Position numbers and translations under genes: made by a program | Assembly (NCBI GenBank): GCA_030834445.1 | Contig: JAURFC010000002.1 | Span: 8,504 to 72,503 of the forward strand | Length of the DNA stretch: 64,000 nucleotides | Origin: Bacillota bacterium | GTDB taxonomy: Bacteria > Bacillota_I > Bacilli_A > RFN20 > CAG-826 | Reading direction: 5' to 3' | In this document: piece by piece, positions 901 through 64,000 of the stretch | How positions within the stretch are numbered: the first letter of the stretch is position 1 | Layout: each line of letters begins with the position of its first letter | Notes under the pieces: generated by a model | The model's input: only the letters and a program-made list of their open reading frames with translations | Told to the model about the DNA's origin: nothing | Databases searched by the model: none

Positions 901-911
901 GGAGATTACCC

Positions 912-1277: not shown

Positions 1278-1289
1278 TCGTTGAAGTGT

Positions 1290-7418: not shown

Positions 7419-7946
7419 ATGAATGCTTCCATCAACGCATTATTAGTTCGTATTCAACAAGGGGAAGTCGAAGCGATGAATGAGTTATACTTGCAAACTA
7501 AGCGAGGTGTTTTTAGTTTTGTTTTGCCCTACCTTCGCGATATGCATCTTTGTGAAGACATCATGCAAGATACGTATGTGAAAATTTTTCAAAACATTCA
7601 ACAATTTCAACCCAAAACCAATGGCCTCAATTGGATGCTCACGATTGCAAAAAATACCGCATTAAATCTTATTAACGTTCGTCAACGCGAAGATTCTTTT
7701 GATACCCAAGAAATGAATGATGTCCTTGATGGCGGGCAAGATACATACGAATTTGATTCTCCCATTATTCAAAAAGCCAAAGCGCTTCTTCCTGAGGATG
7801 AAGCTCACATTGTTTTCTTATATGCGATTGGGGATTACAAACATCGCGAAATCGCCACCATGTTATCGTTACCGCTTGGCACCGTAACATGGAAATACAA
7901 CAAGGCGATGAAAACATTGAGGGAGGCGTTCCGTGATGAACAATAA
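7419..7946 (+). CDS. ECF-type RNA polymerase sigma-70 family factor
   Basis: 175 aa. Region 2 (DIMQDTYVKIF) and region 4 HTH (HREIATMLSLPLGTVTWKYNKAMKTLRE). Confidence 0.88.
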   Translation: MNASINALLVRIQQGEVEAMNELYLQTKRGVFSFVLPYLRDMHLCEDIMQDTYVKIFQNIQQFQPKTNGLNWMLTIAKNTALNLINVRQREDSFDTQEMNDVLDGGQDTYEFDSPIIQKAKALLPEDEAHIVFLYAIGDYKHREIATMLSLPLGTVTWKYNKAMKTLREAFRDEQ

Positions 7947-11929: not shown

Positions 11930-12460
11930 AAACCATGGAAACTCGAAGAGCTTAGTCAACTATTCTTTTTTGGATCAACCCTTGTATTAGGATTACTTGC
12001 CATGATCAATCCAAGTTTTGTTTATTCTGTACTTGGTGCCGTTATTGGGTTATTAGGATTCATCCTCATTGCCTATTACGGCTATAAACTATATCGATAT
12101 GTTTCGCAATTTCAACGGATGTCAAACACACTTGTGTCACCGTTAATAATTTTACTTTTGCTGGCGATTCTCTTTATCTTTATTCCAGCAAGTTCGCTAG
12201 CTGCACTCGTGGCCTGGTTAACTTTACTTGGTTTAGTCGGTTATGGTTTTTATCGGCTATATTTTGTTGCTCGCTATCTTCATCGTCGCTTAACGATTCT
12301 CGATTGGATGCTGGGCTTAGGGGCATGGGGACTAGCAATTCTTGTTTTATTTAATTTAAATAAAACCCCCGATATTATTATGTTTTTCATCGGGGGTGTT
12401 CTAATTTATTTCAGTGGCTATTCGTTATTTAAAGTATTATTGCGCCATCAAGACGATTGA
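11912..12460 (+). CDS. Hypothetical polytopic membrane protein
   Basis: 182 aa, 5-6 hydrophobic helices, no family recognised. Start could be ATG 11912, 11918 or 11921. Confidence 0.55.
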   Translation: MRMMKQKPWKLEELSQLFFFGSTLVLGLLAMINPSFVYSVLGAVIGLLGFILIAYYGYKLYRYVSQFQRMSNTLVSPLIILLLLAILFIFIPASSLAALVAWLTLLGLVGYGFYRLYFVARYLHRRLTILDWMLGLGAWGLAILVLFNLNKTPDIIMFFIGGVLIYFSGYSLFKVLLRHQDD

Positions 12461-13254
12461 TGACGAAGATGATAGGCTTCTACCACATTTTTCAATAAGG
12501 ATAAACGTGTTAATAAACCTACCCCACCCGGAACAGGGGTTTGTAGTGCAGCATGACGTCCTGGTTTAATATCACCAAAAAGGAGACCATCTTCACGATT
12601 AATGCCAATATCGACGAGTATGGCACTCGGTTTAATTTTCTCATCCGACAAAAACCATTTTTGGCCGACCGCGACACAAATAAGGTCCGCGGATTGGAGT
12701 AACGCCAATTTTGTCGCTTCTTCAGTTTTGGAATGAATCATCGAAACCGTACAATCGCGATCTAGTAACGCCGTTGATAAGGGTTTTCCTACGATAAACG
12801 ATCGCCCGATGACGACTGCATGCTTTCCTTTAAAGGGAAAACCGATGGCGTCTAAATAGTCCACGATGCCTTTGGGGGTACACGCCATCATCGAAGATAA
12901 GGGATGAAAGCCATCGACATCCTTAGATGGCACGATCGCTTCCCGAATAACTCTGGGGCGAATCGTATCGGGTAACGGCACTTGAACGAGCAACCCATCC
13001 ACAGAGGGATCGTCGTTATATCGTTGAATTTCTTTAAGTAGATCGGCTTCCGTTATTGTGATGGGATAACGGACGTGTGTCGCTTTAATTCCCACATCCT
13101 GACAATCTTGAATTTTGCCACGAATATAAATATTGGAACCTTCGTTTTCATTCGCTTGAATAATCACCAAATGAGGGGTTAATTTTAACGATGAAATCGT
13201 TGTATTTAGTTTGATTTTTTCTTGTTCTACAAATGCTTTAATGGTCATCGTCAT
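12448..13254 (-). CDS. folD: Bifunctional methylenetetrahydrofolate dehydrogenase/cyclohydrolase
   Basis: VQVPLP, DVDGFHP and PGGVG motifs. Start may be the second ATG (13248) if the transcript is leaderless. Confidence 0.92.
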   Translation of the reverse strand: MTMTIKAFVEQEKIKLNTTISSLKLTPHLVIIQANENEGSNIYIRGKIQDCQDVGIKATHVRYPITITEADLLKEIQRYNDDPSVDGLLVQVPLPDTIRPRVIREAIVPSKDVDGFHPLSSMMACTPKGIVDYLDAIGFPFKGKHAVVIGRSFIVGKPLSTALLDRDCTVSMIHSKTEEATKLALLQSADLICVAVGQKWFLSDEKIKPSAILVDIGINREDGLLFGDIKPGRHAALQTPVPGGVGLLTRLSLLKNVVEAYHLRHQSS

Positions 13255-20035: not shown

Positions 20036-20641
20036 TCATGCTTTCGTTGGATGTGCGAGGACAAAACCATGAAGATTTTTAAAACCACGACGTTTTAGTT
20101 GTTGTAACATCCATTTCATAGTTTCTCCAGACGTTAAAACATCATCGACACAAACAAGTTTTTGATACGATTTTAACGTATTTAATTGACTTTCCTCTAC
20201 GCGAAGGTGATGCCCAATATCCTTTCGCTTTGGAAATGATTGATCGCTTTGTTTGTAGTCCCCTTGTTTAAAAAACAGTTGATAACATGGACCAACGTGT
20301 TTAAAAATTTCCTTTAAAGGGGAAAATCCACGGCGATCATCATCCATTAAATGAACGGGTGGCATAATAATGGCCGCTTTCTCAAAGTGAATCCAAAACC
20401 ACATCGTAACGCCTTTTAAAAAACCTAGACTGAGTGCGCGTTCCCCCAACCCTTTATAGCGATAAAGCAAGGACTTAAAAAAATCATTGTATTTATAAAG
20501 AATCCAAAAGCGATATCCTTCTATTTTTTGCGACGTCCACAACCTTTCTAACTTTAAATCACACGACGCACAGCGTGCATAAGAAACGCGCCATTCTTGG
20601 GTCATGCTTTTAAAACAAAGTTGACAACGCACGGTTGGCAT
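20036..20641 (-). CDS. comFC: ComF family protein (ComFC, PRTase-fold competence protein)
   Basis: N-terminal Cys pairs (CQLCF...CASC) and C-terminal PRTase motif VCVDDVLTSGETM. Start uncertain: ATG 20641 preferred over 20710. Confidence 0.8.
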   Translation of the reverse strand: MPTVRCQLCFKSMTQEWRVSYARCASCDLKLERLWTSQKIEGYRFWILYKYNDFFKSLLYRYKGLGERALSLGFLKGVTMWFWIHFEKAAIIMPPVHLMDDDRRGFSPLKEIFKHVGPCYQLFFKQGDYKQSDQSFPKRKDIGHHLRVEESQLNTLKSYQKLVCVDDVLTSGETMKWMLQQLKRRGFKNLHGFVLAHPTKA

Positions 20642-21770
20642 GTTCAATGCGTTGGTAACTTGCAACCATGGCCGGTGTAACCACTTGGGCATATAAGATA
20701 ACTTCACCATAAGGATCCTCCTTTTTTCGTCCGACTCTTCCCGCCATTTGAATGAGTGTTTTTTCTTCCATCAACGGATGGTCTGCAGACGCAATAATAA
20801 CTTGTAGATGAACTAATGTAATTCCGCGTTCCAGAATGGAAGTAGACACAAGATAATGAACTTTTCCTTGCTTGAATGCCTCAATATCTTCATCACGCGT
20901 GGGCGTCCCGGCATGAACCCATCTTCCTTTAGGAATCCACAACGATAGCCATTGAAAAAGACGTTTCCCTTCAGCAAGCGTTGGGACAAAGATGATGACG
21001 GGTTTATGATTTTGGACCCATATTTTCACACGATTAATCATCAAAAAATAACTAAGAAATTGCCATGTTCGAATCCATTTTAACTGGGGCATCGGATGTT
21101 GATGATGGCGAATTTCCAAGCGTTCAATATGACCTCCAATATCATGAAACGCCTTTAAAACATACGGAGTAAATGTTGCTGATAAATAAATAATGCTCCC
21201 TTTGACCGAACGTTTGACCATCGCTTTTAGAACACGATTCCCGACATAGGGAAAGGCATCCAATTCATCAAAAACAAGCAAGGAAAAATAATGTTGATAA
21301 CGATAGAGTTGGTGGGTTGTCAGTACTGTGATATGTCCCTCTAATTGATCGGTATGCCCTCCATAGACTTCCACGCATGTAGAAAAGGGAAAGGCGTTTA
21401 CTAGCCGAGGAAAGAGTTCACGAACAACATCGCGTCGGGGAATCACAAAGCCTACTCGTCCCCCTTGTTTTAATGTCCATAGGATGGACGCAAAAACAAT
21501 TTCTGTTTTTCCACTTCCTGTCACTGCATCGACCATGACATCCTTCTGTTGTTGAATGGCAGATAAAATGCCCTCAGAAACGCGTTCTTGTGCAGGCGTT
21601 AATGCATAGCCAAGTTGAAGAATATGCTCGATTGAAAAAGGTTGTGCTTGCATGGCGATCGGTTCGGTTTGAAAGGGTAAACAAACCCGACAATAGCGAA
21701 CCCCTTTGCGCGTATCAAAAAGATCCGTTTCACGATTACCGCAAAAAGAACATGGTTGAATGATTTCCAC
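20610..21770 (-). CDS. comFA: ComFA-like DEAD/DEAH-box helicase (DNA uptake ATPase)
   Basis: N-terminal zinc ribbon (CSFCG...CRVC), Walker A AVTGSGKTE, DELD box and helicase C domain. Followed by comFC. Confidence 0.85.
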   Translation of the reverse strand: MEIIQPCSFCGNRETDLFDTRKGVRYCRVCLPFQTEPIAMQAQPFSIEHILQLGYALTPAQERVSEGILSAIQQQKDVMVDAVTGSGKTEIVFASILWTLKQGGRVGFVIPRRDVVRELFPRLVNAFPFSTCVEVYGGHTDQLEGHITVLTTHQLYRYQHYFSLLVFDELDAFPYVGNRVLKAMVKRSVKGSIIYLSATFTPYVLKAFHDIGGHIERLEIRHHQHPMPQLKWIRTWQFLSYFLMINRVKIWVQNHKPVIIFVPTLAEGKRLFQWLSLWIPKGRWVHAGTPTRDEDIEAFKQGKVHYLVSTSILERGITLVHLQVIIASADHPLMEEKTLIQMAGRVGRKKEDPYGEVILYAQVVTPAMVASYQRIEHANRALSTLF

Positions 21771-39115: not shown

Positions 39116-40117
39116 TTATCCGCGTTTGTACGGGGCAATCAAGTCGTGAGGATGATACTTTTTAACGAGCTGTAAATAAAAGTAAGGATTTAATAAGAGT
39201 TCTCGACCCAGATAAATAAGCGATATGCCTTGGCCCAATGCATCTTCGATTTGTTCGTAGGTCGTGACGAGGCCTCCCCCAATGGTAGGAATATCCTGCT
39301 TTTCAATCACCTTCGCAAAACCAAGTTGGTAACCTGGATACGATTGAATAGAAACAGGGACGGCACCACCACTACTCACATTAACGCCGACCACGTAAGG
39401 TTTAATAAGATTAATCACGCGAAGTGTTTCTTCCACATGATGACCGCCTTCGGCATATTCTTCCACCGATAATCGGACCCAGATAGCGCCATGAAATTTC
39501 GTGGATACTGCCTGTAAAATTTCAATTAAAAAACGCGTACGATTTTCGATGGATCCACCATATTCATCGGTTCGATGATTCGTTAATGGAGATAAAAACT
39601 GATTGATGAGGTACCCATGGGCCCCGTGAATTTCAACGCCATCAAATCCTGCTTGTTGAGCACGATGGGCAGCCAATCGGAAGTGATGAATGACGGTTTG
39701 AATATCTTCCTTTGTCATCGCTCGGGGCGTCCGGTGTTCAGGTGTAAACGGGATGGCCGATGAAGAAATGGCTTCTTGGGACATATCGCCTGATTTTTTT
39801 CCCGCATGAGCGAGTTGAATTGCAATTTTAGCGCCACCATGATGAACTGCGCTTACAAGTTGATGTAATCCGGCTAGTTGAGCATCATCATAAATACCTA
39901 AATCGTGAATCGAAATGCGACCCCGTGATTCGACCGCGGTGGCTTCGACAATGACTAAACTCACACCGCCATACGCACGGGCAGGATAATGCGCGAGATG
40001 AAACGGTTGTACGTGTCCTTCTTCGTTGGCACTATACATACACATCGGGGCCATGACAAGGCGATTTTTAAGCGAAAGAGAGCCCCATTGAAAAGGGGTA
40101 AAAAGTAAACCACTCAT
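39116..40117 (-). CDS. namA: NADPH dehydrogenase / Old Yellow Enzyme (YqjM/NamA type ene-reductase)
   Basis: LFTPFQWGSLSLKNRLVMAPMCMYSA matches the YqjM-type N-terminus. HGAHGYLINQFLSP and RTDEYGGSIENR motifs. Confidence 0.92.
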   Translation of the reverse strand: MSGLLFTPFQWGSLSLKNRLVMAPMCMYSANEEGHVQPFHLAHYPARAYGGVSLVIVEATAVESRGRISIHDLGIYDDAQLAGLHQLVSAVHHGGAKIAIQLAHAGKKSGDMSQEAISSSAIPFTPEHRTPRAMTKEDIQTVIHHFRLAAHRAQQAGFDGVEIHGAHGYLINQFLSPLTNHRTDEYGGSIENRTRFLIEILQAVSTKFHGAIWVRLSVEEYAEGGHHVEETLRVINLIKPYVVGVNVSSGGAVPVSIQSYPGYQLGFAKVIEKQDIPTIGGGLVTTYEQIEDALGQGISLIYLGRELLLNPYFYLQLVKKYHPHDLIAPYKRG

Positions 40118-41874
40118 CGGAAGAAACCAACATAGGCACCCATTGCAAAATTACGATAGTACCCATCAAAATAAATAAGTGATTGCACCCATATATCTAT
40201 CGAGAACGTTTCAAAAGTGAAGGAAATGAGTAAGTCTTCAGGGTCTTCTGCCGTGTAGTCTGCTTGTTGGATATCTTCACCGGGGAAATGCCGCTCTAAC
40301 AAAACGGCAATCATTTCCTCAAGAATACCAATCGTAACGGCTTCATCACCATACGTGATATTCCAATCAAGTTGTAAATCGGTTTCTTCCTCCATGGTCA
40401 GTGACATGGCGACGTTGTCGCTGGTATAGGGTGTTTCCACAAGATCCATGATTGAAGGCACAAATAAGAATGTTTCATAGTCAAAGGAGGAAAAATCTAA
40501 GATTTGATTCGATAAGGAAAAGTAATAATCCATAAATTCGACGATTGGATCATCGGTATATGTCCCAAAGGTCGTTGGAAAATCAGCGGGATGTTGATAC
40601 GATTCCGGAATGCCCGAAAAGGAAGCAAGACCAATTTCATTCATGGACGTGACAAGCGAAAAAAGTTGATTGTATTCCGCTTGTGTAAGGTCGTTTTTGA
40701 CCATCAATTCCCCTTCTTCATCGCGCATATCGAGCCGTTCAATCGCCGCGTTAAATTGCCCTTGTAAAATGAATCGGGCAATGCCAACCCCATTGACGAA
40801 AGGCATCACGGCCGCGAACACATAAATGCCCACAAGGGTTAATAAGGCCCGTTGGGTGGCTTGAGGATGTTTTTTGAGTACCCAAATCGCGTAACTGATC
40901 GGCCAAATTCCCATCAAAAGTTGTAGGACGATACCCATGGAAAATCCAAAGACAACCCCCACACGAATGAGTTCTACATAATAACCAAACATAATCACAA
41001 GTAAAACGATGGGGAAAAGGTTTTGGAAAAACTTTATTAAAGGATAACGTTCGACAAACCGACGGGTGGAGACATGCGTTGAAATCCCAGCAAAAGCAAT
41101 CACCAAGGTCGATAACGTATAAATTCCCGCGTTATATTGTTCACTTTGAAATAAACCGGTCAGCAAATAAATGACGATAAAGATCATGAACACACTGATG
41201 ACAGGCGCAAGCACAAATAGGAAGATACGTTCCCAGATAACGGAGTATGGTCCTTCTTCGAGTTTTTCGTTTCCTCGAGGAAAGCCATTCAACCACGTTG
41301 GAACAAAAACATAGGTAAGCGATAAGATAAGCACATTCGAGTAGACGGTAAAGGCAATCGATAAATTAAATAGAATATTCGTGCTCAATAAAATAATGGC
41401 GACACCGACAAAGAGGAATAAGGCATAAACAAGCGCGGTAAAAATAACATTAATGCCATCAATGATGGGTTTTTCAATCGCCTTATTCGCACGGAAATAT
41501 CGGATAAATAAAGGCAATAAATAAAACCCAAAAAGTAAATTTGAAAAGCGAAAAAAGCCCACGGCAAGATTCGCTTCGAGTTGCAACCAACCAAAATAAA
41601 GCCCGGTGAGAAGGATCACGGTGAGAATATCGATGATCTTCGACCAGCGCCACCACGAAAATGTTTCCCTTGTTAAGGTCACACTCAACGTTAATGGAAG
41701 AAAAATAAACAACGCTTGAGAGACATCGGTCAACCAATTCAGTTCAAGGTCTTCATTCAATACCATCAAAAATCCTAAAAGAAAGGAATAAATTAATGTG
41801 ACAGGAAAGCGTTGCCAACTTCCTTGCAATGGTTTTAATAAAAAGTTATTCAACCAGCGCTGAATCAAGTTCAT
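40114..41874 (-). CDS. Large polytopic membrane protein, DUF4153-like
   Basis: 586 aa. About 11 TM helices, then an acidic soluble C-domain of about 200 aa. N-terminal RFPVTLIYSFLL motif as I recall for DUF4153 proteins. Confidence 0.55.
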   Translation of the reverse strand: MNLIQRWLNNFLLKPLQGSWQRFPVTLIYSFLLGFLMVLNEDLELNWLTDVSQALFIFLPLTLSVTLTRETFSWWRWSKIIDILTVILLTGLYFGWLQLEANLAVGFFRFSNLLFGFYLLPLFIRYFRANKAIEKPIIDGINVIFTALVYALFLFVGVAIILLSTNILFNLSIAFTVYSNVLILSLTYVFVPTWLNGFPRGNEKLEEGPYSVIWERIFLFVLAPVISVFMIFIVIYLLTGLFQSEQYNAGIYTLSTLVIAFAGISTHVSTRRFVERYPLIKFFQNLFPIVLLVIMFGYYVELIRVGVVFGFSMGIVLQLLMGIWPISYAIWVLKKHPQATQRALLTLVGIYVFAAVMPFVNGVGIARFILQGQFNAAIERLDMRDEEGELMVKNDLTQAEYNQLFSLVTSMNEIGLASFSGIPESYQHPADFPTTFGTYTDDPIVEFMDYYFSLSNQILDFSSFDYETFLFVPSIMDLVETPYTSDNVAMSLTMEEETDLQLDWNITYGDEAVTIGILEEMIAVLLERHFPGEDIQQADYTAEDPEDLLISFTFETFSIDIWVQSLIYFDGYYRNFAMGAYVGFFR

Positions 41875-42419
41875 CGATTTCTACCTCCTGAGGAATGAGA
41901 TGAAGCGGCAGCAGCCCCAGCAGCAGCTTGCCGACGCTTATCATCAATAAAGTCATCAATCATTAGCACAACACTCACAGCAAGGGCCTCATCAAAGCCA
42001 TCTTCAATGGCAATTTGATAAGTGTCTCCCCAGGCTAAAAACTTCTTTTGAATTTGAACCACGGTACCATTTTCATCGGCAATTCGATAATTATAGCCAA
42101 AGAAATCGCCTTGAATTTCATATTTTTTCCCTTGAATTAAGAGGTTAAATCGTACCCCAAAAAAGGCAAGAAGTTGTTGGGCAAGCTTTGCAACAACGGC
42201 ATTCTGACGATCGTATAAAAAATAAGTAGGAACAAAGGTTAAAACTTTTTGTCGAATCGAATAAATGGGAGTGAGATCTCCGACTTTAAAAATATCTTTA
42301 TGACTATGCATCGAAAAGAATTTCCCTTTTGCCTCATACAAGACATTTTGAACTTCATCATACACTTTGTATTCATCCCGAATGGCGAATACTTTTTGCT
42401 TAAGATAAACATATTTCAT
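41871..42419 (-). CDS. LURP-one-related (DUF567, tubby/scramblase-like fold) protein
   Basis: 182 aa. MKYVYLKQKVFAIRDEYKVYDE... repeated beta-hairpin pattern and a C-terminal helix typical of the LOR family. Ala/Ser/Gly-rich tail. Confidence 0.65.
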   Translation of the reverse strand: MKYVYLKQKVFAIRDEYKVYDEVQNVLYEAKGKFFSMHSHKDIFKVGDLTPIYSIRQKVLTFVPTYFLYDRQNAVVAKLAQQLLAFFGVRFNLLIQGKKYEIQGDFFGYNYRIADENGTVVQIQKKFLAWGDTYQIAIEDGFDEALAVSVVLMIDDFIDDKRRQAAAGAAAASSHSSGGRNR

Positions 42420-43357
42420 GCGATAAATTCCTCCACATGATCAATAAATAAATCAAAAAAGGTATCAAAAGGAAGATGACCCGCATTGGGTATCATGACA
42501 AGACGGGTATTGTCTCCCAAACTTTGTAAGAGTAATTCCCCGGTGGCAAGGGGAATAAATCCATCAAATTCACCCCAAAGTAGCATGATCGGTTGCGTGA
42601 TTGTATCGAATATTTCTTGCATATTTTGCGAATCATTATCCTCACCAAATTGTTTAAGAATATCCGGTGGAATCGTACGATTGACGACATACATTTCATC
42701 AAAATCTTCATTCGTGATAAGCCCATTATTCCGTTCGTATTCTGAGTACGCGGTAAAAAAGAAGGCACGTTGAATGTAATAGTTTTGAACCACTTCTTTG
42801 TACATGAAAAGAGGTAAGCTGGGGGGATTGGTCATCGCGCCTTCCGGATAATATCCTGCAGACCCGACCAACATAAGTTGGGAAATTTTTTCAGGGGCAA
42901 GATGGGTAAGGTGAAAGGAAACTTCCCCTCCCATGGAATGGGCCATCAAGGTAATATCGTTTAATTGCTTAACTTCAATAAATTCAAGCACCGTTCGCGC
43001 TTGATTTTCTTTACCATAATCATAATCACGAGGTTTACTCGATAGTCCAAAACCTATTAAATCAACCGCGATGACGTGATGGGTGGTTTTAAAATATTCA
43101 AATACGTGAATAAAATCATAACTTGATCCTAAAAATCCATGAACGAAAAGCATCACGGGTGCATTGGCATCCCCAGCTTCGCGGTAAAAAATGGTGCGCT
43201 CTTCATCAAGTTGAAGTTCCTTGGCATACGCTTCGTAAACGTATTGACGTGTTTGTATGATCTCTGAGGTTTTTAACCCCGAAGCAGTCCAAAATCCCAC
43301 CGTGATAAAATAAAGCGTTAAGGCGATGATACGCCCCCATTTTATTTTCTTTTTCAT
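42416..43357 (-). CDS. Membrane-anchored alpha/beta hydrolase
   Basis: N-terminal TM helix, HGFLGS oxyanion region, nucleophile elbow AHSMGG, and C-terminal GH. Confidence 0.85.
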   Translation of the reverse strand: MKKKIKWGRIIALTLYFITVGFWTASGLKTSEIIQTRQYVYEAYAKELQLDEERTIFYREAGDANAPVMLFVHGFLGSSYDFIHVFEYFKTTHHVIAVDLIGFGLSSKPRDYDYGKENQARTVLEFIEVKQLNDITLMAHSMGGEVSFHLTHLAPEKISQLMLVGSAGYYPEGAMTNPPSLPLFMYKEVVQNYYIQRAFFFTAYSEYERNNGLITNEDFDEMYVVNRTIPPDILKQFGEDNDSQNMQEIFDTITQPIMLLWGEFDGFIPLATGELLLQSLGDNTRLVMIPNAGHLPFDTFFDLFIDHVEEFIA

Positions 43358-44307
43358 CGCATTAACTCAATGCCAGCCGAGCTGCTGACCCCTTGATATA
43401 ACAGGCGTTTTCCTTTCGTTAATCGTAAGGAAACATGCCCGGATAATCCTTCTTTAATTTGATGATCCATCGACCCTAATTTCGGTGATTTGAGGGCAGC
43501 AACGCGATCAATCGTCGCTTCAAATTCAAGCATTAAAGATCCTTTCTTGAGAATATAATGACCAGAACGTTGGGTAATCACTTCTTGATTGACCTTGGCG
43601 CCATTATACGTTGCAAATCGGTAATGCTGTCCTGCGACATAAAGATGACAAATAAGACCGAGGAATTTTAACCCTAAGTAAGGAATCTTCGCATAAGAAA
43701 AGAAAAAAGAAATATTGTCTTCCAGGAAATGATTCGCTTGAACCCACACATAATTTTCAGGGAATGAACGCCCCCAATCTTTTTCTAAATACCCTTTTCC
43801 ACTCGTAAATTCAATCACGTCCTCATTCACAGATAGCGATCCCGTGATCGAATGATTTAGCGAAAGTACCCCATGATAACATTCCATCGCTGGGAGATAG
43901 GCAAACGGTCCCATAATGGAAGGATTCAAAATGTTTTTTGGAAGCGGAATACGGCCTTGATAATGGAAGTCACCACGCAAGTGAACATCGTCATTTTTCA
44001 AGTCAATATGGGTTTGATCCAATGAGAATGTATTGGTGCCTACTTGCACATGAAAGCGTTTCTTATCGGCAGAAAAATCCGAGGTGGGAAAACGAAAATA
44101 ATGATAATCAAGACGTGGTTCTTCCCCCTTATCCACTAAAAATACTTGGACAAAGGCATGCGGATCTTTCTTAGAAAGAGAGATGCCAGGAATTAGCGCA
44201 AGCGAGAACGTTTGATCCGCCGTCACATGTTTAAAGTACCAACCTTCAAAGTAGCGATTGGTTTGGCCGAAGCCTTGATATATTTCAGGTTTTTGAGGAT
44301 GATTCAT
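43354..44307 (-). CDS. Tocopherol cyclase-like family protein
   Basis: 317 aa. NRYFEGWYFKH near the N-terminus is the hallmark of the tocopherol cyclase (VTE1-like) family. LEKDWGRSFP motif. Confidence 0.7.
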   Translation of the reverse strand: MNHPQKPEIYQGFGQTNRYFEGWYFKHVTADQTFSLALIPGISLSKKDPHAFVQVFLVDKGEEPRLDYHYFRFPTSDFSADKKRFHVQVGTNTFSLDQTHIDLKNDDVHLRGDFHYQGRIPLPKNILNPSIMGPFAYLPAMECYHGVLSLNHSITGSLSVNEDVIEFTSGKGYLEKDWGRSFPENYVWVQANHFLEDNISFFFSYAKIPYLGLKFLGLICHLYVAGQHYRFATYNGAKVNQEVITQRSGHYILKKGSLMLEFEATIDRVAALKSPKLGSMDHQIKEGLSGHVSLRLTKGKRLLYQGVSSSAGIELMR

Positions 44308-44338
44308 AAAAAAAGCTAAGGGATTCCCTTAGCTTTTA
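44308..44338 (-). terminator. Strong hairpin/T-tract between the heliorhodopsin gene and the downstream operon
   Basis: AGCTAAGGG-att-CCCTTAGCT (44314-44334). On the minus strand it is followed by T7 that runs directly into ATG 44307. Confidence 0.8.
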
Positions 44339-44363
44339 TTTTACCTTATTTTAACGGGATTCG

Positions 44364-45188
44364 TTAGGAAGGTTGGAAGGCACCGAAGAGGACGAGCCAG
44401 GTTAAGATGGTTTTTGCAACTAACGATAAGATGATATAACCACGTTCACCGACAAGATAGTCTTTAAATCTACCCACGCCTAAGTATTGTAAAAGCATGT
44501 TAACGGGGAAGGTGTTGAAGGCAATGAAATAGGTGGCTAAAATCGCCCAAACGAAAACTGGAACGGCATCTAAGTTGGGGTTCACCCCAATGTAGAAGGC
44601 AATGGCAACCCAAGGAGCAAGACCAACGATGGTCCCAAAAATAAAGGGTAACCAGTTGATTTTCTTACCGACTTTGGATTCGCCTGCGTTGAGTAATTCC
44701 ATATCTAAACCGAAGAAGTTCATCGCCGCATTCGCTAACGCGATTAAGGCAAAGACGGCCACATCGCGAACACCAAATAACGAAGAAATTAACACGATCA
44801 TTAAGGATGACGATAACGCATATTCATACCAACGGAATTGGTTGATACCGACACGTAAACCTTCACGATATTTCTTCTTGAAAGGAAAGGCGATAAGGAA
44901 GTGGAATAAAGCCGATAAAAGCAAGAAACTTGCAGTTAATGGTAAGAAAGGTAACTGAAATAACGTGTCTGTGACGGTTAACACTAACCCTTCACCTGGA
45001 ACGAACTCAAGGTAATTACCGATGACATCGATATTAAAGGCCCCTTGTTCGGAAATACTGGGATACACAAAGAAGGCAAATGCCATCATGAGAACCCCTT
45101 GGATTAAGTGAACAAGACCCATGGTTTTGTTAAAACCAAGGAGTTTGTCTACTTTTTGGTCGAACGACAATTCAACTTTTGCGCTCAT
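44364..45188 (-). CDS. Heliorhodopsin
   Basis: 7 TM. FRWYEYALSSSLMIVLIS and GERGYIILSLVAKTILTW match recalled HeR-48C12 segments FRWVEYSLSSSVMIVLIA and GERAYIVLSLVAKSALAW. Lys codon at 44412-44414. ATG 45188 has SD aaggag 5 nt upstream (spacer atttt), so the track start 45209 is rejected. Confidence 0.9.
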   Translation of the reverse strand: MSAKVELSFDQKVDKLLGFNKTMGLVHLIQGVLMMAFAFFVYPSISEQGAFNIDVIGNYLEFVPGEGLVLTVTDTLFQLPFLPLTASFLLLSALFHFLIAFPFKKKYREGLRVGINQFRWYEYALSSSLMIVLISSLFGVRDVAVFALIALANAAMNFFGLDMELLNAGESKVGKKINWLPFIFGTIVGLAPWVAIAFYIGVNPNLDAVPVFVWAILATYFIAFNTFPVNMLLQYLGVGRFKDYLVGERGYIILSLVAKTILTWLVLFGAFQPS

Positions 45189-45256
45189 AAAATCTCCTTT
45201 TTTCACCATAATTGGTAATATTAGTATAAATCCGATGATAAAAAGTGAGGCGAAAA

Positions 45257-56799: not shown

Positions 56800-59166
56800 T
56801 TATTCTGTTCTTAAGGCGATAACTGGATCTTTTTTCGCGGCAATTCCTGATGGAATTAAACCCGCAAGGAGTGTTAGGAAGGTTGATAAGACGATGAGTC
56901 CAATCGCGTAAAGTGGGGAAAGGGAAGTAAAGTCATCCACTTCGATAAAGTTTTTGATAATAATATCAATCGGAATATTGAGTAATAACGTAATCGTAAT
57001 GCCTAAAATTCCCGAGGTGAACCCAATAATAATCGTTTCTGCATTAAAGATACGCGAAATATCTTTCTTGCGTGCACCTAGCGATCGCATAATCCCAATT
57101 TCTTTGGTACGTTCAATCACAGAAACGTAGGTGATGATGCCAATCATGATGGAAGAAACAAATAAGGAAATCGAGGCAAAGGCTGCGAGAACAATCGCAA
57201 TCGTATTAATTAAATCGGTAATGGTTGACGTGATGGTTGCCGCTAAATCAGAATAAATAATGACATCTTCAATTGGAATGCGATTACCTGCTTCATCATA
57301 GTTGTACGCATCAATATAGGCCTTAATGAGTTCTTTATTTTCAAAAGAACTTGGGTAAATTTGGACACCGACCGGTAAGGTAGACCCTCCCAAGGTTCGC
57401 ATTCGACTTGTATATTCTGCTTCACTTGTAAACTCATTCCCCGAGACAAAAACATCGTATCCTGGTTCTTCTTCCGAGATCCACTTGGCAGCTTCTTGGG
57501 CTTGAACAATGTCCGAATTTACCGCACCCACTTGTTCATCCGCATAGGCGTAATCAGTTAACAACGTCGTATAAGCAAGTCCTGGTGTCAGTAATTCTGC
57601 ACTGGCAGAAGCTTTCACGCGAACCACACCGGTAATCTTTAAAGGTAAGGAATCAGGATTGTCATACATCCCTTGGGCATTCAGAGATCCGGAGAAAATT
57701 GTTTTACCATTCAAGTCAGTTTTCACAAAATAGGCATTATTAGGAATCCATTTAAGATCAAAAACCGAATCATTGGTCCCATCGGATAAAATATCCGAGA
57801 AATCTAAACCTTCGGTGTTGTTTATTCCATAGGTTGAGAAAAATCCCTCATCAATACGGTTGCGTTGATCCACAATGAGTAAAAGTTCATCCTTCTCATC
57901 CGGAAGACTCCCTTGTAATAAGTCATATTGGTCAAGAATAAAGGTGGGGTTATCTGGGAGTTCATAAAAGTTATTAGAAAAGGAGAAAAAACTACCCCCT
58001 GAATTCGAAATAAATTTCGCATTGCCTCCGCTCGTAATGGAAACTAGACGCATCGCCATCGCTTTAGAATACGTAAGCGCGTTGTAATACGATGCATCCA
58101 TCGCATTTAAATAGTCGACAAACGCTTGAGAAATATTGTTGGTATGCACATCTGGAGAAGAATCATACCCGGTGACGATCGTAGAATCCGGAAAATCTAA
58201 GTCGGATGGTTCGGCAATATCGGGAGGTCCAAATTCACGAATAGTTTGGTTAATCGTAATGGGAAACCCTGCTAAGGTATCACTTTGTAGACCTGCCACA
58301 TAGGTATTCATTCCACCTGATATCGATAAAACAAGGGCAATCCCAATAATCCCAATACTTCCTGCTAGCGAAGTGATTAAGGTGCGGCCTTTTTTGGTTA
58401 AAAGATTTTTATAGGATGTTTTTAAAGCGGTGGCAAAACTCATCGTGGTGCGTTTCGTCATGAGTTTTCCTGAGGACTCGGCATCCATTACTTCAGGACG
58501 AGAGTCATCAATGACACGTCCGTCTAATAGTTTTACAATACGGTCTGAATGCAATTCTGCAAGTTCTGCATTATGGGTAACCATAATGACCAAACGACCT
58601 TTAGAAATCTTTTTAATAAGATCAATAATTTGACCACTCGTTTTCGTATCAAGTGCACCAGTCGGTTCATCCGCAAGCAAGATTTTCGGGTTATTAACTA
58701 AAGCACGAGCAATCGCAACCCGTTGCATTTGTCCCCCGGAAAGTTGATTTGGGCGTTTGTAGACATGGTCTTCTAACCCCACTTCTTTCAAAACATCCAA
58801 CGCACGTTTGCGACGTTCTTTGGCATTGACACCCGATAAACGCAGCGCCATCTCAACATTATCTACCACGGATAAATGGGAAATAAGATTATAGGTTTGA
58901 AACACAAAACCGATCGTCGCATTTCGATAACTATCCCATTCCGATTCGGTAAAGTTTTTCGTTGATTTTCCATCCACGATTAAATCTCCGGAAGTGTAAC
59001 GGTCTAATCCTCCAATAATGTTCATCATCGTGGTTTTTCCACAGCCAGAGGGTCCTAAAACAGAAACGAATTCGTTATTGCGAAACGAAAGATCCACACC
59101 GCGTAATGCAGGAAAAGGTTGCCCAGCAACCACATAATTTTTAACAATCGACTTAAGTACGAGCAT
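56800..59166 (-). CDS. Fused MacB-type ABC transporter (ATPase + FtsX permease in one chain)
   Basis: N-terminal [24 protein letters not shown] and [11 protein letters not shown]. Then a TM, an ectodomain of about 350 aa and a C-terminal FtsX 3-TM bundle. SD aggagg. Confidence 0.88.
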
Positions 59167-60587: not shown

Positions 60588-61457
60588 ATGAAATACCGTA
60601 TTGGTTGGATTGGAACTGGTTTAATGGGTGCCCCGATGGCACGCCATCTTGCGTCAATCCATGACGTTATTGTCTATAATCGAACCATCGAAAAAGCCCA
60701 TGCCCTTTTACCGAGCGTCACCGTCGCACGTGATCCTAAAGAAATTGTGGAGCAATGCGACATTATTTTTACCATGCTCGGTATGCCAGAAGACGTTAAA
60801 AATATATATGAAGAAATGCTCATACCGAACGCCAATCCGGGTACGATTCTTATTGACGCAACGACTTCTTCACCCCGATTAGCTCGACAACTTGCCCTCC
60901 TCGGAAAAGTAAAAAACATTGCCGTACTCGATGCTCCAGTCACAGGAAGCGTTTCTGGGGCAACGAATGGGACGTTAACGACGATGGTGGGCGGTGATCT
61001 TCACGCATTTGAAAAGGTTCGGCCGCTTTTAGAAAAATTTACTAAAACACTTTTATACATGGGCGAAGCTGGTCAAGGTCAGCAAACAAAACTCGCTAAT
61101 CAAATTGCAATTGCGGGCGCGCTTGCAAGTCTTGCCGAAGCTCTTGCTTTTGCCGAAGCCTCAGATCTTCCGATGGAACTTGTCTTAACGATGATTCAAT
61201 CCGGGGCAGCGAGCTCTTATGCAAGTTTAATGTATGGACCCAAAATGTTGAAATCTGACTTTGAAGCAACCTTCTTTGTTCGTCATTATCTTAAAGATCT
61301 GCGTCTCGCCTTAGAAGAAACACCCATTGAATTATCGATTTTATCGTCCGTCTATCGCGTCATGGACGAAATTGCTAAACAATTTCCATATGCAGGTGTT
61401 CAAGCGATTATCACGTATTATCGCGACCTTATTTCCCGTAAAGTTGATACAAAATAA
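60588..61457 (+). CDS. NAD(P)-dependent 3-hydroxyisobutyrate dehydrogenase family oxidoreductase
   Basis: IGWIGTGLMGAPMARHL Rossmann motif, DAPVTGS, and a conserved K in QQTKLANQI. Confidence 0.85.
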   Translation: MKYRIGWIGTGLMGAPMARHLASIHDVIVYNRTIEKAHALLPSVTVARDPKEIVEQCDIIFTMLGMPEDVKNIYEEMLIPNANPGTILIDATTSSPRLARQLALLGKVKNIAVLDAPVTGSVSGATNGTLTTMVGGDLHAFEKVRPLLEKFTKTLLYMGEAGQGQQTKLANQIAIAGALASLAEALAFAEASDLPMELVLTMIQSGAASSYASLMYGPKMLKSDFEATFFVRHYLKDLRLALEETPIELSILSSVYRVMDEIAKQFPYAGVQAIITYYRDLISRKVDTK

Positions 61458-62235
61458 ACTGCACGAATTTTTTGGGTAAGATGCGATTTAAGAATTGTAA
61501 AAATTGATAAGAAAAACCAATCGTTATTGAAACGGGAGGATTTATTTTCATGATAATTTTCTTAACGGCACGAAAAACGCTATGCGTAGGCATGCCACTT
61601 TTTTCATCCGCTTCCATACGTTGAATAGAACGCTGAATGCGTTCATAGTATGGCGATTCTTTTTGATAGACAGTGACGCGGTTTGCACTAAATTGGGATT
61701 GCGTATCCCCGGGTTTAATCGTGACTACGCGAACTCCGAATGGTTTTAACTCATTGCGTAATCCTTCACTGTATCGCTCCAGCGCGGCTTTGGATGCGGA
61801 ATAAAACGTTTGAAAAGGAATGGCTAGATCGCCTGCGACCGACCCCACATGAATAATATAACCACGCGCATCTTTGATCATCGGCAAAAGCAGACGATTT
61901 AAACGATCAATTGCAAGCACATTCAAGGCCAAGGTTTTTTCAAAAGCATCGTCCGGTAATTCTTCAACCGAACCACCATAACCTAATCCAGCATTTTGAA
62001 TGACCACATCAAGTTGGAGACTGACTTTTTTAAAAGCATCTGGGAGTTTAGATATCGCTTCTTTATCGGTTAAATCGCACGAAAAAAACGTAAACGTGAA
62101 CGGTTCTATTGGTTGACTTCGCGCGACGCCAATCACACGGTGACCCCACTTTTGTAAACGTTGGGCAAGATCAAAACCGATGCCTTTTGAAGCACCGGTC
62201 ACGAGAATCGTTAATGGTTTTTTAACGGACTTCAT
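61429..62235 (-). CDS. Classical short-chain dehydrogenase/reductase (candidate 3-keto-sphingoid/capnoid reductase)
   Basis: TGASKGIG, NAG and YSASK motifs. ATG 62235 is chosen by distance to the Rossmann motif and overlaps the upstream AOS gene by 14 bp. The 3' end overlaps the convergent HIBADH gene by 29 bp. Confidence 0.8.
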   Translation of the reverse strand: MKSVKKPLTILVTGASKGIGFDLAQRLQKWGHRVIGVARSQPIEPFTFTFFSCDLTDKEAISKLPDAFKKVSLQLDVVIQNAGLGYGGSVEELPDDAFEKTLALNVLAIDRLNRLLLPMIKDARGYIIHVGSVAGDLAIPFQTFYSASKAALERYSEGLRNELKPFGVRVVTIKPGDTQSQFSANRVTVYQKESPYYERIQRSIQRMEADEKSGMPTHSVFRAVKKIIMKINPPVSITIGFSYQFLQFLNRILPKKFVQFILYQLYGK

Positions 62236-63445
62236 GGAGAAGGGCCATGACCTTTTCATCTTCCATCGGAATTTCTGCAAGCGTTTGGGCAATAATGGCA
62301 ACGGCTTCATCAATGAGTTCTTTAGTATGCGTCGCAGTGTAACTCGTGCGAATTAAGCATTGACCTTCCGGAGCGGCGGGTGGAATAACAGGATTCACAT
62401 AAACACCTCGTTTATAAAGTAATTTTGCAATCACAAAGGTGCGTAGCATCGTGTAGGTGTAGATGGGAATAATCGGGGCAACGGAGTCATTTGCTAAAGG
62501 CAGATTTTTTTCGAGCATTTTTTGACGCGTGTAAGCCGAAATGTCTCGTAAAGCTTGAGGACGCTCAGGTTCAGCTTCAAGAATCTTAAGGGATGCGAGC
62601 GCACTGGCCGCTGAGGCAGGGGTGAGAGCGGCTGAAAAGATAAACGGACGCGATTTATGTTTCACAAAATTGACAACTTCCTTCTTCGCCACCATAAAAC
62701 CACCAATCGAAGCAAGTGATTTAGAGAAGGTGGACATAATGAGGTCTACCTCGTCATGTAGACCAAAATGTTCTGCGGTTCCTCGGCCTTTGGCCCCAAG
62801 AACGCCAAATCCATGAGCATCATCGACCATCACGCGAGCGTTATATTTTTTGGCTAATCGAACGATTTCAGGTAGATTGGCAATATCCCCTGACATTGAA
62901 AATACGCCATCGGTGACGATGAGTTTTCCGGCCTGAGGATCGGCTTCTTCCAGCAATTTTTCTAAATGGGCCATGTCGTTATGGTGAAAACGAACACTCG
63001 ATGCAAAACTTAAGCGAATGCCATCATAAATACACGCATGGTTTTCCCGATCAGAAAAAATAATATCGCCTCGACCTGCAATGGCAGAAATGATCGCCAA
63101 GGTTGATTGAAATCCACTCGGAAAGGTTAACGCCGCTTCTTTTTCCATGAAACGAGCCAATTCTTCTTCCAGTTCCAAGTGTAAATCTAATGTTCCATTT
63201 AAAAAGCGAGATCCCGAGACACCCGATCCATATTTTTTAACGGCATCCACGGTAGCGGCAATCACGCGATAATCCCCGGTTAATCCTAAATAATTATTCG
63301 ATCCAATCATCACTCGGCGTTTGCCTTCCATCGTGACAACAATATCTTGTTTACTTTCTAGGGCATGAAAATAAGGATAAATACCCAAATCAATGGCGTT
63401 ATCTACATCTTTAAAGTCATATGCTTTTTTAAATAAGTCCGCCAT
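62222..63445 (-). CDS. Alpha-oxoamine synthase, serine palmitoyltransferase-like
   Basis: ATG 63445 has SD aggaga 8 nt upstream; the track's TTG start is rejected. YPYFHALES, GSNNYLGLT, GSRFLNGTLDLHLELEEELA and STFSKSLASIGGF (PLP Lys codon 62720-62722) match recalled bacterial SPT sequences better than KBL or BioF. Confidence 0.8.
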   Translation of the reverse strand: MADLFKKAYDFKDVDNAIDLGIYPYFHALESKQDIVVTMEGKRRVMIGSNNYLGLTGDYRVIAATVDAVKKYGSGVSGSRFLNGTLDLHLELEEELARFMEKEAALTFPSGFQSTLAIISAIAGRGDIIFSDRENHACIYDGIRLSFASSVRFHHNDMAHLEKLLEEADPQAGKLIVTDGVFSMSGDIANLPEIVRLAKKYNARVMVDDAHGFGVLGAKGRGTAEHFGLHDEVDLIMSTFSKSLASIGGFMVAKKEVVNFVKHKSRPFIFSAALTPASAASALASLKILEAEPERPQALRDISAYTRQKMLEKNLPLANDSVAPIIPIYTYTMLRTFVIAKLLYKRGVYVNPVIPPAAPEGQCLIRTSYTATHTKELIDEAVAIIAQTLAEIPMEDEKVMALLHEVR

Positions 63446-63544
63446 CGTGAGGTTCTCCTGGTTAGACAAGGTGGTCTTTAATGGTTAAATCATAGCATTT
63501 TTTCGTTATTTTAGGTATATTTTTGAGTAGAAGGAAACACGGTT

Positions 63545-63979
63545 ATGAAAAAGAAAATAGACGTTTCTCATTTAACACCTTTTCAGAAAAAAGTCACACT
63601 TGAAAATGCCACAGAACCTCCCTTTGATAATGAATATTGGGATCATTTTGAAAAAGGTTTATACGTCGATATTATTACCGGAAAACCCCTCTTCACTTCG
63701 GAAGATAAATTTGATTCTCATTGTGGCTGGCCGAGTTTTTCAAAACCCATTGAAGCCGATGTCATCCTCGAGCATCGTGATTATTCCTACGGCATGATTC
63801 GTACGGAAGTTCGTTCCGAGGACTCGGATGCCCATTTAGGCCATGTCTTTGATGATGGTCCTCGCGATCGCGGTGGTTTGCGTTACTGCATTAACTCCGC
63901 ATCAATTCGTTTTGTTCCGTTTGAAGAACTTGAAGCCCAAGGCTATGATGAATACTTACACCTCTTCAAGGAAGAATAA
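63545..63979 (+). CDS. msrB: Peptide-methionine (R)-S-oxide reductase
   Basis: HCGWPSF and GGLRYCINS catalytic motifs. 144 aa. Confidence 0.94.
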
Positions 63980-63981
63980 CC

Positions 63982-64000
63982 ATGAATAACATTGATTTAA
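63982..64000 (+). CDS. Start of an unidentified CDS truncated by the window end
   Basis: ATG 63982 lies 2 nt after the msrB stop (MNNIDL...). Too short to identify. Confidence 0.25.

Follow-up and report, generated by a model that had tools for sequence, protein, structure and literature searches.

Known routes to sphingoid bases

Bacterial sphingolipids have been studied almost wholly in diderms, where they are located in the outer membrane, and studies of host-microbe sphingolipid signalling in the gut usually assign their production to Bacteroidota. To our knowledge, neither the wall-less relatives of the Mollicutes nor Clostridia are thought to make sphingolipids. Acholeplasma axanthum reportedly has a phosphosphingolipid (Plackett and colleagues, 1970; Mayberry and colleagues, 1973). 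Nothing in the literature searched connected serine palmitoyltransferase (SPT) with Bacillota or Mollicutes, the reviews searched nowhere mentioned Acholeplasma or Gram-positive sphingolipids, and the Hujiaoplasma and Xianfuyuplasma papers contained no sphingolipid-relevant data.

The nearest described counterparts of the gene pair considered here are the SPT of Sphingobacterium multivorum (SmSPT; PDB 3A2B, 8GUH; profile NF047600) and the 3-ketodihydrosphingosine reductase KdsR of Bacteroides thetaiotaomicron (BT_0972; profile NF049977), for which reduction before N-acylation is the proposed order (PMC9278070). The sphingolipid pathway genes of Bacteroidota are dispersed (PMC11334938), and Caulobacter has a ceramide cluster of spt, acp, bcerS and cerR (PMC11087976). 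The SPT arm of the α-oxoamine synthases also holds the SulA/CapB enzymes (e.g., Alistipes finegoldii SulA, PDB 7U7H), whose product is likewise subject to keto reduction; Lys281 of this SulA marks cysteate enzymes, and SPTs have Ala there (PMC9304779). E. coli Kbl (with Tdh) and BioF belong to the same superfamily and share its PLP chemistry. Sequence-based assignment among α-oxoamine synthases is easily wrong, and Nostoc Npun_R3567, which is 38.75% identical to SmSPT, behaves as BioF (PMC8895605).

Layout of the locus

The window, which is the whole 64-kb stretch of DNA that was analysed, comes from the genome of an uncultured member of the Bacilli and carries the following features, all on the reverse strand.

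62222..63445 (-): PLP-dependent α-oxoamine synthase, SPT-like, 407 aa (profiles, structure matches, active site, tree)
61429..62235 (-): classical SDR, 268 aa, predicted NADPH-dependent 3-ketosphinganine reductase, KdsR-like (profile, motifs, pairing)
62222..62235 (-): 14-bp overlap running between the SDR start codon and the stop codon of the synthase (reading frames)
63454..63459 (-): Shine-Dalgarno sequence AGGAGA, 8 nt upstream of the synthase ATG (direct sequence reading)

The open reading frame of the synthase covers 62222-63469 (-), and the start is placed at ATG 63445, which gives the 407-aa protein, rather than at the upstream TTG 63469, a choice supported by AGGAGA. The SDR frame runs from ATG 62235 to its end at 61429, and its product begins MKSVKKPLTILVTGASKGIG. 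A sequence-only reading of this DNA had described a 14-bp overlap of the two genes, which is borne out by the frames sharing 62222-62235; the overlap points to a single transcript and probably to translational coupling. This operon sets the synthase apart from SmSPT, and it differs from the dispersed arrangement in Bacteroidota, including B. thetaiotaomicron, where the locus tags of SPT and reductase are far apart.

The pair is flanked by genes for MsrB (divergent), a HIBADH-like dehydrogenase (convergent), a CitMHS-type transporter and a fused ABC transporter. Among these flanking genes we recognised neither an ACP nor an acyl-CoA ligase nor a ceramide synthase, in agreement with the sequence-only reading. 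A promoter and terminator scan of 61000-64000 gave counts not above those of shuffled sequence, and Rfam and tRNA scans of the 64-kb window returned no matches.

The synthase

Among profile models, the synthase is best matched by that of Bacteroidota SPT (NF047600; 509.9 bits, E = 3.7e-153), ahead of KBL (376 bits), a BioF/Kbl-related model (369), beta-proteobacterial SPT (366), BioF (364.9), ALAS (264) and a CqsA-type model (207). It lies below the equivalog cut-off of NF047600 (640 bits) as well as below those of KBL (460) and BioF (426.45). Relatives in its clade score 496-582 bits on NF047600, its Paludibacteraceae members just ~496, and a sequence from the canonical clade (L076) scores 618. 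The closest solved structure is SmSPT (PDB 3A2B; 404 bits, E = 6e-120), followed by ThAOS (291), Sphingomonas SPTs (246-258), E. coli KBL (236), cysteate acyltransferases (233 and 217), BioF (185) and CqsA structures (114). Identity is 49.6% to SmSPT, with the same length, 38.2% to E. coli KBL and 33% to E. coli BioF, and the fold is taken as fixed, given ~50% identity to a crystal structure.

The SPT motif blocks quoted in the sequence-only reading are all present, namely YPYF (residue 23), GSNNYLGLT (48), GSRFLNGTLDLHLELEEELA (78), DGVFSMSGDIANLPE (179), MVDDAHGFGVLG (206), TFSKSLASIGGF (239) and VNPVIPPAAPEGQCLIR (350), and each lines up with its counterpart in SmSPT. The strings that it had contrasted with them, SVRFICGTQD and GTLGKALGG, do occur in E. 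coli Kbl, and the divergence from KBL and BioF that it proposed agrees with the lead of the SPT model (>130 bits) and with SmSPT as the closest structure.

The active site was compared at 22 active-site and acyl-pocket positions described for SmSPT (PMC10196870), 21 of which match, comprising the PLP set (His, Asp, Ala, His, Thr, Ser, Lys), the serine network and the wall of the acyl pocket. In SmSPT numbering, the identical residues are Tyr25, Tyr27, Phe28, Asn52, Gly80, Ser81, Phe83, Leu84, Phe114, His138, Ser185, Asp210, Ala212, His213, Thr241, Ser243, Lys244, Phe272, Ser273, Ala274 and Arg367. The sole mismatch is Met271, which is replaced by Ile; Ile is also found in L076 and L078, both from the canonical clade. 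E. coli KBL and BioF are unlike SmSPT at 25, 27, 28, 243 and 274, and KBL additionally at 80-81. In the numbering of the synthase itself, the predicted PLP lysine is Lys242, and His136, Asp208, His211 and Arg366 are further key residues. The position equivalent to SulA Lys281 is Ala272, and it is Ala in all clade members examined. Of the combined "sphingoid/capnoid" label given by the sequence-only reading, the sphingoid part is supported by the SPT scores and the pocket, and the capnoid part is disfavoured by Ala272 in place of Lys.

In a neighbour-joining tree with few reference sequences, the synthase groups with SPTs (bootstrap 81), apart from ThAOS, KBL and BioF, and so falls outside the KBL and BioF clades in the phylogeny that had been suggested as a check. 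Its own clade comprises 78 sequences, mostly from Bacillota and Mycoplasmatota (bootstrap 90). In the same tree, this clade stands beside, not inside, the canonical Bacteroidota clade that holds SmSPT (bootstrap 97), and the node joining the two has 44% support, as read from neighbour-joining with few references. We know of no member of the synthase clade that has been assayed.

The reductase

The SDR is a classical SDR and is not of the threonine dehydrogenase type. Its best model is KdsR (NF049977), which it matches over model positions 5-267 of 267 with 184.9 bits (next best 153.7) and which ranks first among the 196 families matching it; this score does not reach the NF049977 cut-off of 400 bits. 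Partner SDRs from other lineages behave in the same way, and all 10 tested score best on KdsR (198-305 bits). The motifs TGASKGIG and YSASK, from which the sequence-only reading had recognised a classical SDR, are both present, together with NAG, a catalytic Ser and PGD, and the Gly-rich NADPH motif and Tyr-x-x-x-Lys active site are shared with KdsR. A hydrophobic and basic helix at the C-terminus is conserved. A basic residue follows strand β2 (VARS), and general SDR rules suggest a preference for NADPH.

The matches of the SDR in the PDB are generic SDRs, so the assignment of its function leans mainly on gene linkage. The sequence-only reading had named reduction of 3-ketosphinganine or of dehydrocapnine as the expected next step after the synthase, and both the best model and the conserved synthase partner point to the former as the predicted role.

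Conservation of the pair

Gene neighbourhoods were compared in 81 related loci, of which 78 were informative for adjacency of synthase and SDR. The two genes adjoin in 69 of the 78, co-directionally in 64 and divergently in 5; in each co-directional locus the SDR gene comes second, either overlapping that of the synthase or separated from it by a short gap. Pairwise identities among the synthases correlate with those among the SDRs (r = 0.83), and the genes co-evolve across Bacillota, Mycoplasmatota and Paludibacteraceae. Carriers of the pair include Izemoplasmatales, Acholeplasmataceae, Peloplasma, many Clostridia and Paludibacteraceae, and vertical conservation of the pair extends through whole orders. 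A canonical-clade SPT from Bacteroidales (L078) is also followed immediately by a gene of this SDR family. Separately, a homologue search with an Acholeplasmataceae query gave matches that, as listed, were all at least 78% identical, and A. axanthum was not among the matches listed.

All open reading frames within 7 kb of the pair were clustered in the 81 loci. The recurring neighbours are only housekeeping genes (malate dehydrogenase, LD-carboxypeptidase, pseudouridine metabolism, ribosomal proteins with EF-G, 2-hydroxyacid dehydrogenase, ABC transporters, ClpB and Fur). No ceramide synthase (bCerS), ACP, CerR-type or head-group gene is a conserved neighbour within this distance; therefore, only a sphingoid base, and not a complex sphingolipid, can be deduced from the neighbourhoods. 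A gene for a DAGK-family lipid kinase lies directly beside the synthase in two distant Clostridia (L042 and L068), and only there among the 81 loci. A GNAT gene ~1 kb from the pair is seen only in two closely related loci (L069 and L079).

Proposed pathway and alternatives

This compact two-gene operon would serve to make a sphingoid long-chain base. The synthase is predicted to be a soluble homodimeric PLP enzyme of the SPT type, in which L-serine would be held as an external aldimine on PLP, with Lys242 released and His136 stacked on the ring. Decarboxylative condensation of serine with an acyl-ACP or acyl-CoA of ~C14-C18 would yield 3-ketodihydrosphingosine, whose 3-keto group would be reduced to sphinganine by the translationally coupled, probably NADPH-dependent SDR. 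It is likely, judging by sequence and gene order, that the pair converts serine and a long-chain acyl thioester through 3-ketosphinganine to sphinganine; the base may then be N-acylated to ceramide and receive a head group. Condensation of the SPT type followed by a reductase acting on the 3-keto group is shared with Caulobacter, whose cluster differs in that no ACP, bCerS or CerR-type gene occurs near the pair in the 81 loci (≤7 kb) and in that the pair's own reductase is a KdsR relative among the classical SDRs. The order of steps is accordingly more likely to be that of Bacteroides or eukaryotes.

Among other readings, the least improbable, though we still consider it unlikely, is that the pair makes a non-canonical long-chain amino alcohol, from alanine (1-deoxy bases), glycine or an unusual acyl chain, that serves as a free aminolipid or signal rather than as the backbone of a membrane sphingolipid. 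In its favour, the clade stands apart from the characterised SPTs and scores under the equivalog cut-off, the pair has no linked ceramide synthase, and 1-deoxy-ceramides are abundant in anoxic waters (PMC11334938); SPTs also take alanine and glycine at low efficiency (PMC10196870). However, the network that binds the serine carboxylate and hydroxyl (Asn52, Gly80, Ser81, His138, Ser243 and Thr241) is unchanged, as are Tyr27 and Phe83 of the acyl-pocket wall, and the pocket bears no sign of altered specificity. A small diffusible α-amino ketone or alcohol, made as a signal or secondary metabolite in the manner of CqsA plus a reductase for CAI-1, or as a precursor of pyrazines or pyrroles, is quite improbable. 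A synthase followed by a reductase is a generic two-step logic, and this operon has no further lipid genes nearby, but the similarity to CqsA is weak (207 bits for the model, 114 bits for structures) and the residues of a long-chain acyl pocket are retained. Furthermore, the pair sits amid housekeeping genes, the neighbours examined include no gene for a PKS, an NRPS or a regulator, and the vertical conservation of the pair over entire orders also argues against such a product.

Public annotation (JGI, NCBI) would favour a housekeeping role, since homologues of the synthase are labelled "8-amino-7-oxononanoate synthase" or generic PLP aminotransferase. The enzyme would then be KBL (threonine degradation) or BioF (biotin synthesis), with the SDR as an unrelated neighbour, and its scores on those models (376 and 365 bits) are not far under the cut-offs of 460 and 426. 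We hold this to be very improbable: the SPT model leads both by more than 130 bits, the pocket differs at the diagnostic positions 25, 27, 28, 243 and 274 (and at 80-81 in KBL), the clades are apart in the neighbour-joining tree, and the SDR is not a threonine dehydrogenase. The E. coli reference loci do show the partner genes tdh, bioA, bioB and bioC, which are absent from all related loci; likewise, when partner genes were checked as the sequence-only reading had proposed, tdh, bioA, bioB, bioD and bioW were not conserved neighbours in the 81 loci, and the SDR was. Profile scores, the ranking of PDB matches, residues of the pocket, the tree and absent partner genes together led us to reject KBL, BioF, ALAS and CqsA as identities of the synthase. 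The faintest likelihood attaches to synthesis of capnine, the base of sulfonolipids, by a SulA/CapB-type cysteate acyltransferase and a dehydrocapnine reductase; the enzymology is the same and the cysteate enzymes are close relatives of SPT, but the Lys281 signature is replaced by Ala throughout the clade members examined (PMC9304779) and cysteate acyltransferases in the PDB score 217-233 bits against 404 for SPT. Capnine and sulfonolipid synthesis was rejected on the missing Lys281 signature.

Possible sphingoid bases in monoderms

The wider extension of the sphinganine reading is evenly poised in our view: monoderms may synthesise sphingoid bases de novo, and probably sphingolipids as well, through a compact, horizontally mobile spt-kdsR operon of an unrecognised SPT subclade that databases label BioF. 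The candidate producers, a proposal that could fall either way, would be the wall-less Izemoplasmatales and Acholeplasmataceae, walled relatives among the Bacilli, and many Clostridia of gut, rumen and digesters (Oscillospiraceae, Acutalibacteraceae, Christensenellales, Lachnospiraceae and Butyricicoccaceae). The host of the window is a monoderm and, unlike that of SmSPT, has no outer membrane to receive the lipid.

If the proposal is true, bacterial sphingolipids would be found in the cytoplasmic rather than the outer membrane, where they might help to order the membranes of wall-less cells that do not depend on sterols, and a genetic basis would be available for the phosphosphingolipid reportedly described in A. 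axanthum ~50 years ago. The list of sphingolipid producers would widen to monoderms, and those of the gut would not be limited to Bacteroidota. The BioF annotation would be hiding spt-kdsR genes from metagenomic surveys, and the two-gene unit would offer a convenient minimal cassette for sphinganine in heterologous hosts.

The pair is carried by several cultured organisms (Peloplasma aerotolerans M4Ah, Ca. Izemoplasma sp. B36, Tenericutes bacterium MO-XQ and MZ-XQ, and Clostridium radicumherbarum), which puts the prediction within direct reach of lipidomics. Peloplasma aerotolerans has no LPS, yet contains 3-OH C18:0 (4.1%) and 3-OH C16:0 (1.8%; PMC11122141), and these acids resemble, as circumstantial evidence, the amide-linked acids of bacterial ceramides.

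Organisation of the locus

The serine palmitoyltransferase (SPT)-like synthase is encoded on the minus strand by an open reading frame called from 63469 to 62222. An ATG at 63445, with AGGAGA 5' of the start codon at a spacing of 8 nt, gives the 407-aa product proposed in the earlier sequence-only reading. The ATG of the downstream SDR gene lies at 62235, 14 bp ahead of the synthase stop codon, and the two reading frames and start codons thus confirm the 14-bp overlap with a classical SDR claimed in that reading. The mapped genes in this part of the window are:

63545-63979, divergent from the pair, MsrB
62222-63445, minus strand, synthase (407 aa)
61429-62235, minus strand, SDR (268 aa)
60588-61457, plus strand, convergent, HIBADH-like dehydrogenase
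56800-59166, minus strand, ABC-ATPase/FtsX-permease fusion (788 aa), 2.3 kb downstream of the pair

A CitMHS-type transporter gene also lies near the pair, and with flanks of this kind the pair is a self-contained unit of two genes. The 3' ends of the HIBADH-like and SDR genes share 29 bp (61429-61457), and no terminator-like hairpin was found between them. A consensus scan for promoter and terminator signals around the pair scored no higher than shuffled background.

Family assignment of the synthase

Every motif quoted in the sequence-only reading is present, seven in the synthase and two in the SDR, and the strings it contrasted as typical of KBL occur in E. coli Kbl. The Pfam assignment of the synthase is Aminotran_1_2, and the Bacteroidota SPT model scored highest among the NCBIfam models.

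NCBIfam scores of the window synthase (bits; curated cut-off in brackets)
Bacteroidota SPT (NF047600): 509.9 (640)
KBL: 376 (460)
Beta-proteobacterial SPT: 366 (500)
BioF: 365 (426)
ALAS: 264 (339)
CqsA type: 207 (428)

Among solved structures, the top match by far was the SPT of Sphingobacterium multivorum (SmSPT; 3A2B, 8GUH) at 404 bits, followed by Thermus ThAOS (291 bits), Sphingomonas SPTs (246-258), E. coli KBL (236), two cysteate acyltransferases (233 and 217), BioF (185) and CqsA (114). Local identity followed the same order, with 49.6% to SmSPT, 41.9% to ThAOS, 38.2% to KBL and 33.0% to BioF.

Functional residues known from 1.5-Å SmSPT complexes were placed on the window synthase by MAFFT alignment. 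The set comprises the PLP binders Phe114, His138, Ser185, Asp210, Ala212, His213, Thr241, Ser243, Lys244, Ser273 and Ala274, the serine network of Asn52, Gly80, Ser81 and Met271, and the acyl-pocket wall of Tyr27, Phe83 and hydrophobic neighbours (PMC10196870). In this alignment the window synthase is identical to SmSPT at all mapped residues except Met271, where it has Ile, as do L076 and L078 of the canonical clade. Positions 25, 27, 28, 243 and 274 differ from SmSPT in both KBL and BioF of E. coli, and positions 80-81 in KBL as well. A single residue is reported to set sulfonolipid (cysteate) enzymes apart, Lys281 of SulA, with Ala in its place in SPTs (PMC9304779). The equivalent in the window synthase is Ala272, which makes a capnine pathway unlikely for the pair. 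Thus, of the sphingoid or capnoid base pathway first suggested for this monoderm, the sphingoid half is favoured by the NF047600 score and the retained SmSPT residues, and the capnoid half is not.

A neighbour-joining tree (Kimura distances, 100 bootstraps) was built from 86 sequences: the window synthase, those of 80 loci from species-representative genomes, and a small reference set of SmSPT, S. wittichii SPT, ThAOS, E. coli Kbl and BioF. The clade of the window synthase comprises 78 sequences (bootstrap 90) and lies next to one of SmSPT and two Bacteroidota sequences (bootstrap 97); in this tree, with its small reference set, the node uniting the two has only 44% support. Both clades, an Anaerolineae sequence and S. 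wittichii SPT split from ThAOS, KBL and BioF with a bootstrap of 81, which for this method and reference set places the synthase outside KBL and BioF, as the sequence-only reading had expected. Window-clade members, including those from Paludibacteraceae, scored 496-582 bits on NF047600, all below its cut-off. By all tests applied the synthase is SPT-like in sequence, and by the NCBI cut-off and the tree it is a member of a sister subfamily to the canonical SPTs rather than a canonical SPT. No biochemically characterised member of this subfamily was found. Its standing matters because a Nostoc protein 38.75% identical to SmSPT proved to be BioF (PMC8895605).

The candidate reductase

The SDR carries the motifs TGASKGIG, NAG and YSASK, the catalytic Ser, PGD, and a conserved hydrophobic/basic helix at its C-terminus. 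Of the NCBIfam models it scored highest on KdsR, the 3-ketodihydrosphingosine reductase model based on BT_0972, at 184.9 bits, with the runner-up model at 153.7. KdsR likewise came first for each of ten partner SDRs taken from other lineages (198-305 bits). The proposal that the SDR performs the next step is thus favoured by its best model and by linkage in 69 of 78 loci, and is weakened by a score below the KdsR cut-off of 400. The PDB matches are generic SDRs, so the substrate is not fixed by sequence alone. The SDR has basic residues within the Gly motif and just behind strand beta2, which by general SDR rules suggests NADPH use.

Gene linkage and co-evolution

The strongest independent evidence for this reading of the pair is gene linkage. 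Together with the window, 81 loci were compared, 78 of which had flanks long enough to judge. The SDR gene lies directly downstream of the synthase on the same strand in 64 of these 78, and directly upstream and divergent in another five. No other gene family is conserved beside the pair across lineages in the 81 loci. None of them has tdh or bio genes near the pair, and the lack of an adjacent ACP, acyl-CoA ligase or recognisable ceramide synthase gene, noted at the outset for the window, extends to the whole set.

Pairwise identities of synthases and SDRs correlate (r = 0.83). Furthermore, Paludibacteraceae SDRs are 46% identical to Clostridia SDRs versus 35% to the partner SDR of the canonical-clade Bacteroidales SPT, and their synthases likewise (60% versus 44%). 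Judged from these identities, the pair evolved as a unit and probably moved between phyla as one. The loci from Paludibacteraceae and other Bacteroidales (L028-L071) suggest, with low internal tree support, whole-pair transfer between Bacillota and rumen/gut Bacteroidales.

A DAGK_cat/YegS-family lipid kinase gene adjoins the synthase in two distant Clostridia, with no further homologues in the 81 loci:

L042, 11390-12295, Clostridium radicumherbarum
L068, 1663-2589, Butyricicoccaceae MAG

Identity between the two kinases is only 27%, and their genes lie on opposite sides of the synthase gene. The DAGK family takes in sphingosine and ceramide kinases, so the adjoining genes fit a lipid product of the pair, and their products are candidate long-chain-base or ceramide kinases. 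The window's ABC/FtsX fusion shares 43% identity with the transporter encoded immediately upstream of the synthase gene in Ca. Izemoplasma sp. B36 (L009, 7691-9907). Genes for homologues are found near the pair in 12 loci, comprising the window and Izemoplasmatales lineages. This protein could be a lipid exporter, or its position could be mere lineage synteny.

Host and distribution

Over 11 kb, the window matches a contig of the MAG 'Bacilli bacterium YM.12' at 94.5% identity. The remaining genes of the window, heliorhodopsin included, are ordinary Bacilli housekeeping genes. To our knowledge, heliorhodopsins are reported only from monoderms, which supports the host assignment.

Nearest synthases outside the window's own group (identity to the window synthase)
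Izemoplasmatales, including Ca. Izemoplasma sp. B36 (complete genome): 68-71%
Acholeplasmataceae and cultured Peloplasma aerotolerans: 60-65%
Many Clostridia families: 55-63%
Paludibacteraceae and other Bacteroidales: 57-61%

A second homologue search found related synthases in the isolates 'Tenericutes bacterium MO-XQ' and 'MZ-XQ'. The public names of these synthases are all '8-amino-7-oxononanoate synthase' or generic PLP aminotransferase. The pair is also carried by L002 (CAMBSI010000011.1; GC 38.9%), a contig whose public record names it a 'Staphylococcus epidermidis' MAG; DNA identity to the window is about 75%, and its synthase is 85% identical to the window's. The likeliest explanation is mis-binning or mislabelling of a contig that belongs to a relative of the window organism.

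Among mollicutes, a sphingolipid has been reported for one, Acholeplasma (Haploplasma) axanthum. Full-text search found no paper that connects Mollicutes, Izemoplasmatales or Bacillota with SPT or with genes for sphingolipid synthesis. In a major review, Gram-positive or mycoplasma sphingolipids go unmentioned, and a 2025 preprint on gut lipid metabolism reports SPT from E. coli and B. thetaiotaomicron only. A Black Sea survey extended Spt-like genes to 38 phyla and, as far as its accessible text and supplements go, names neither Firmicutes nor Bacillota (PMC11334938). By this comparison the enzymology of the pair is already known; the synthase subclade appears undocumented, as do the spt-kdsR operon with its overlapping genes and the breadth of its distribution among monoderm and wall-less lineages.

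Proposed pathway

Serine would join PLP as an external aldimine on the synthase, and condensation with a long-chain acyl-ACP or acyl-CoA, with loss of CO2, would give 3-ketosphinganine. The SDR, probably translationally coupled, would then reduce the ketone with NADPH to sphinganine, which may be N-acylated, phosphorylated or given a head group, among other fates. A monoderm, or a cell without a wall, would have to accommodate the product in its cytoplasmic membrane. Within this scheme, the family assignment is the one element that is not inferred. The fatty acids of Peloplasma aerotolerans M4Ah (L020), a cultured, wall-less carrier of the pair without LPS, include 3-OH C18:0 (4.1%) and 3-OH C16:0 (1.8%; PMC11122141). 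Such acids are unexpected in a cell without LPS; as circumstantial evidence, they are compatible with the amide-linked hydroxy acids of ceramide.

Other features of the window

The heliorhodopsin gene heads a same-strand run (39116-45209) that could be a retinal- or carotenoid-related cluster:

44364-45209, minus strand, heliorhodopsin (PF18761, 275 bits)
43354-44307, minus strand, tocopherol-cyclase-like protein
42416-43357, minus strand, alpha/beta hydrolase
after the hydrolase, minus strand, 182-aa ORF
40114-41874, minus strand, 586-aa protein
39116-40117, minus strand, OYE flavin oxidoreductase

At E <= 1e-8, Pfam matched neither the 586-aa protein nor the ORFs at 7933-9144 (plus strand, 403 aa) and 20036-20710 (minus strand, 224 aa). 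In addition, at 61-4062 (plus strand) the glycine-cleavage genes gcvT and a two-subunit gcvP adjoin an amino-acid permease gene, and FolD lies at 12448-13254. These genes of serine, glycine and one-carbon metabolism share a chromosomal region with the pair and are probably unrelated to the operon.
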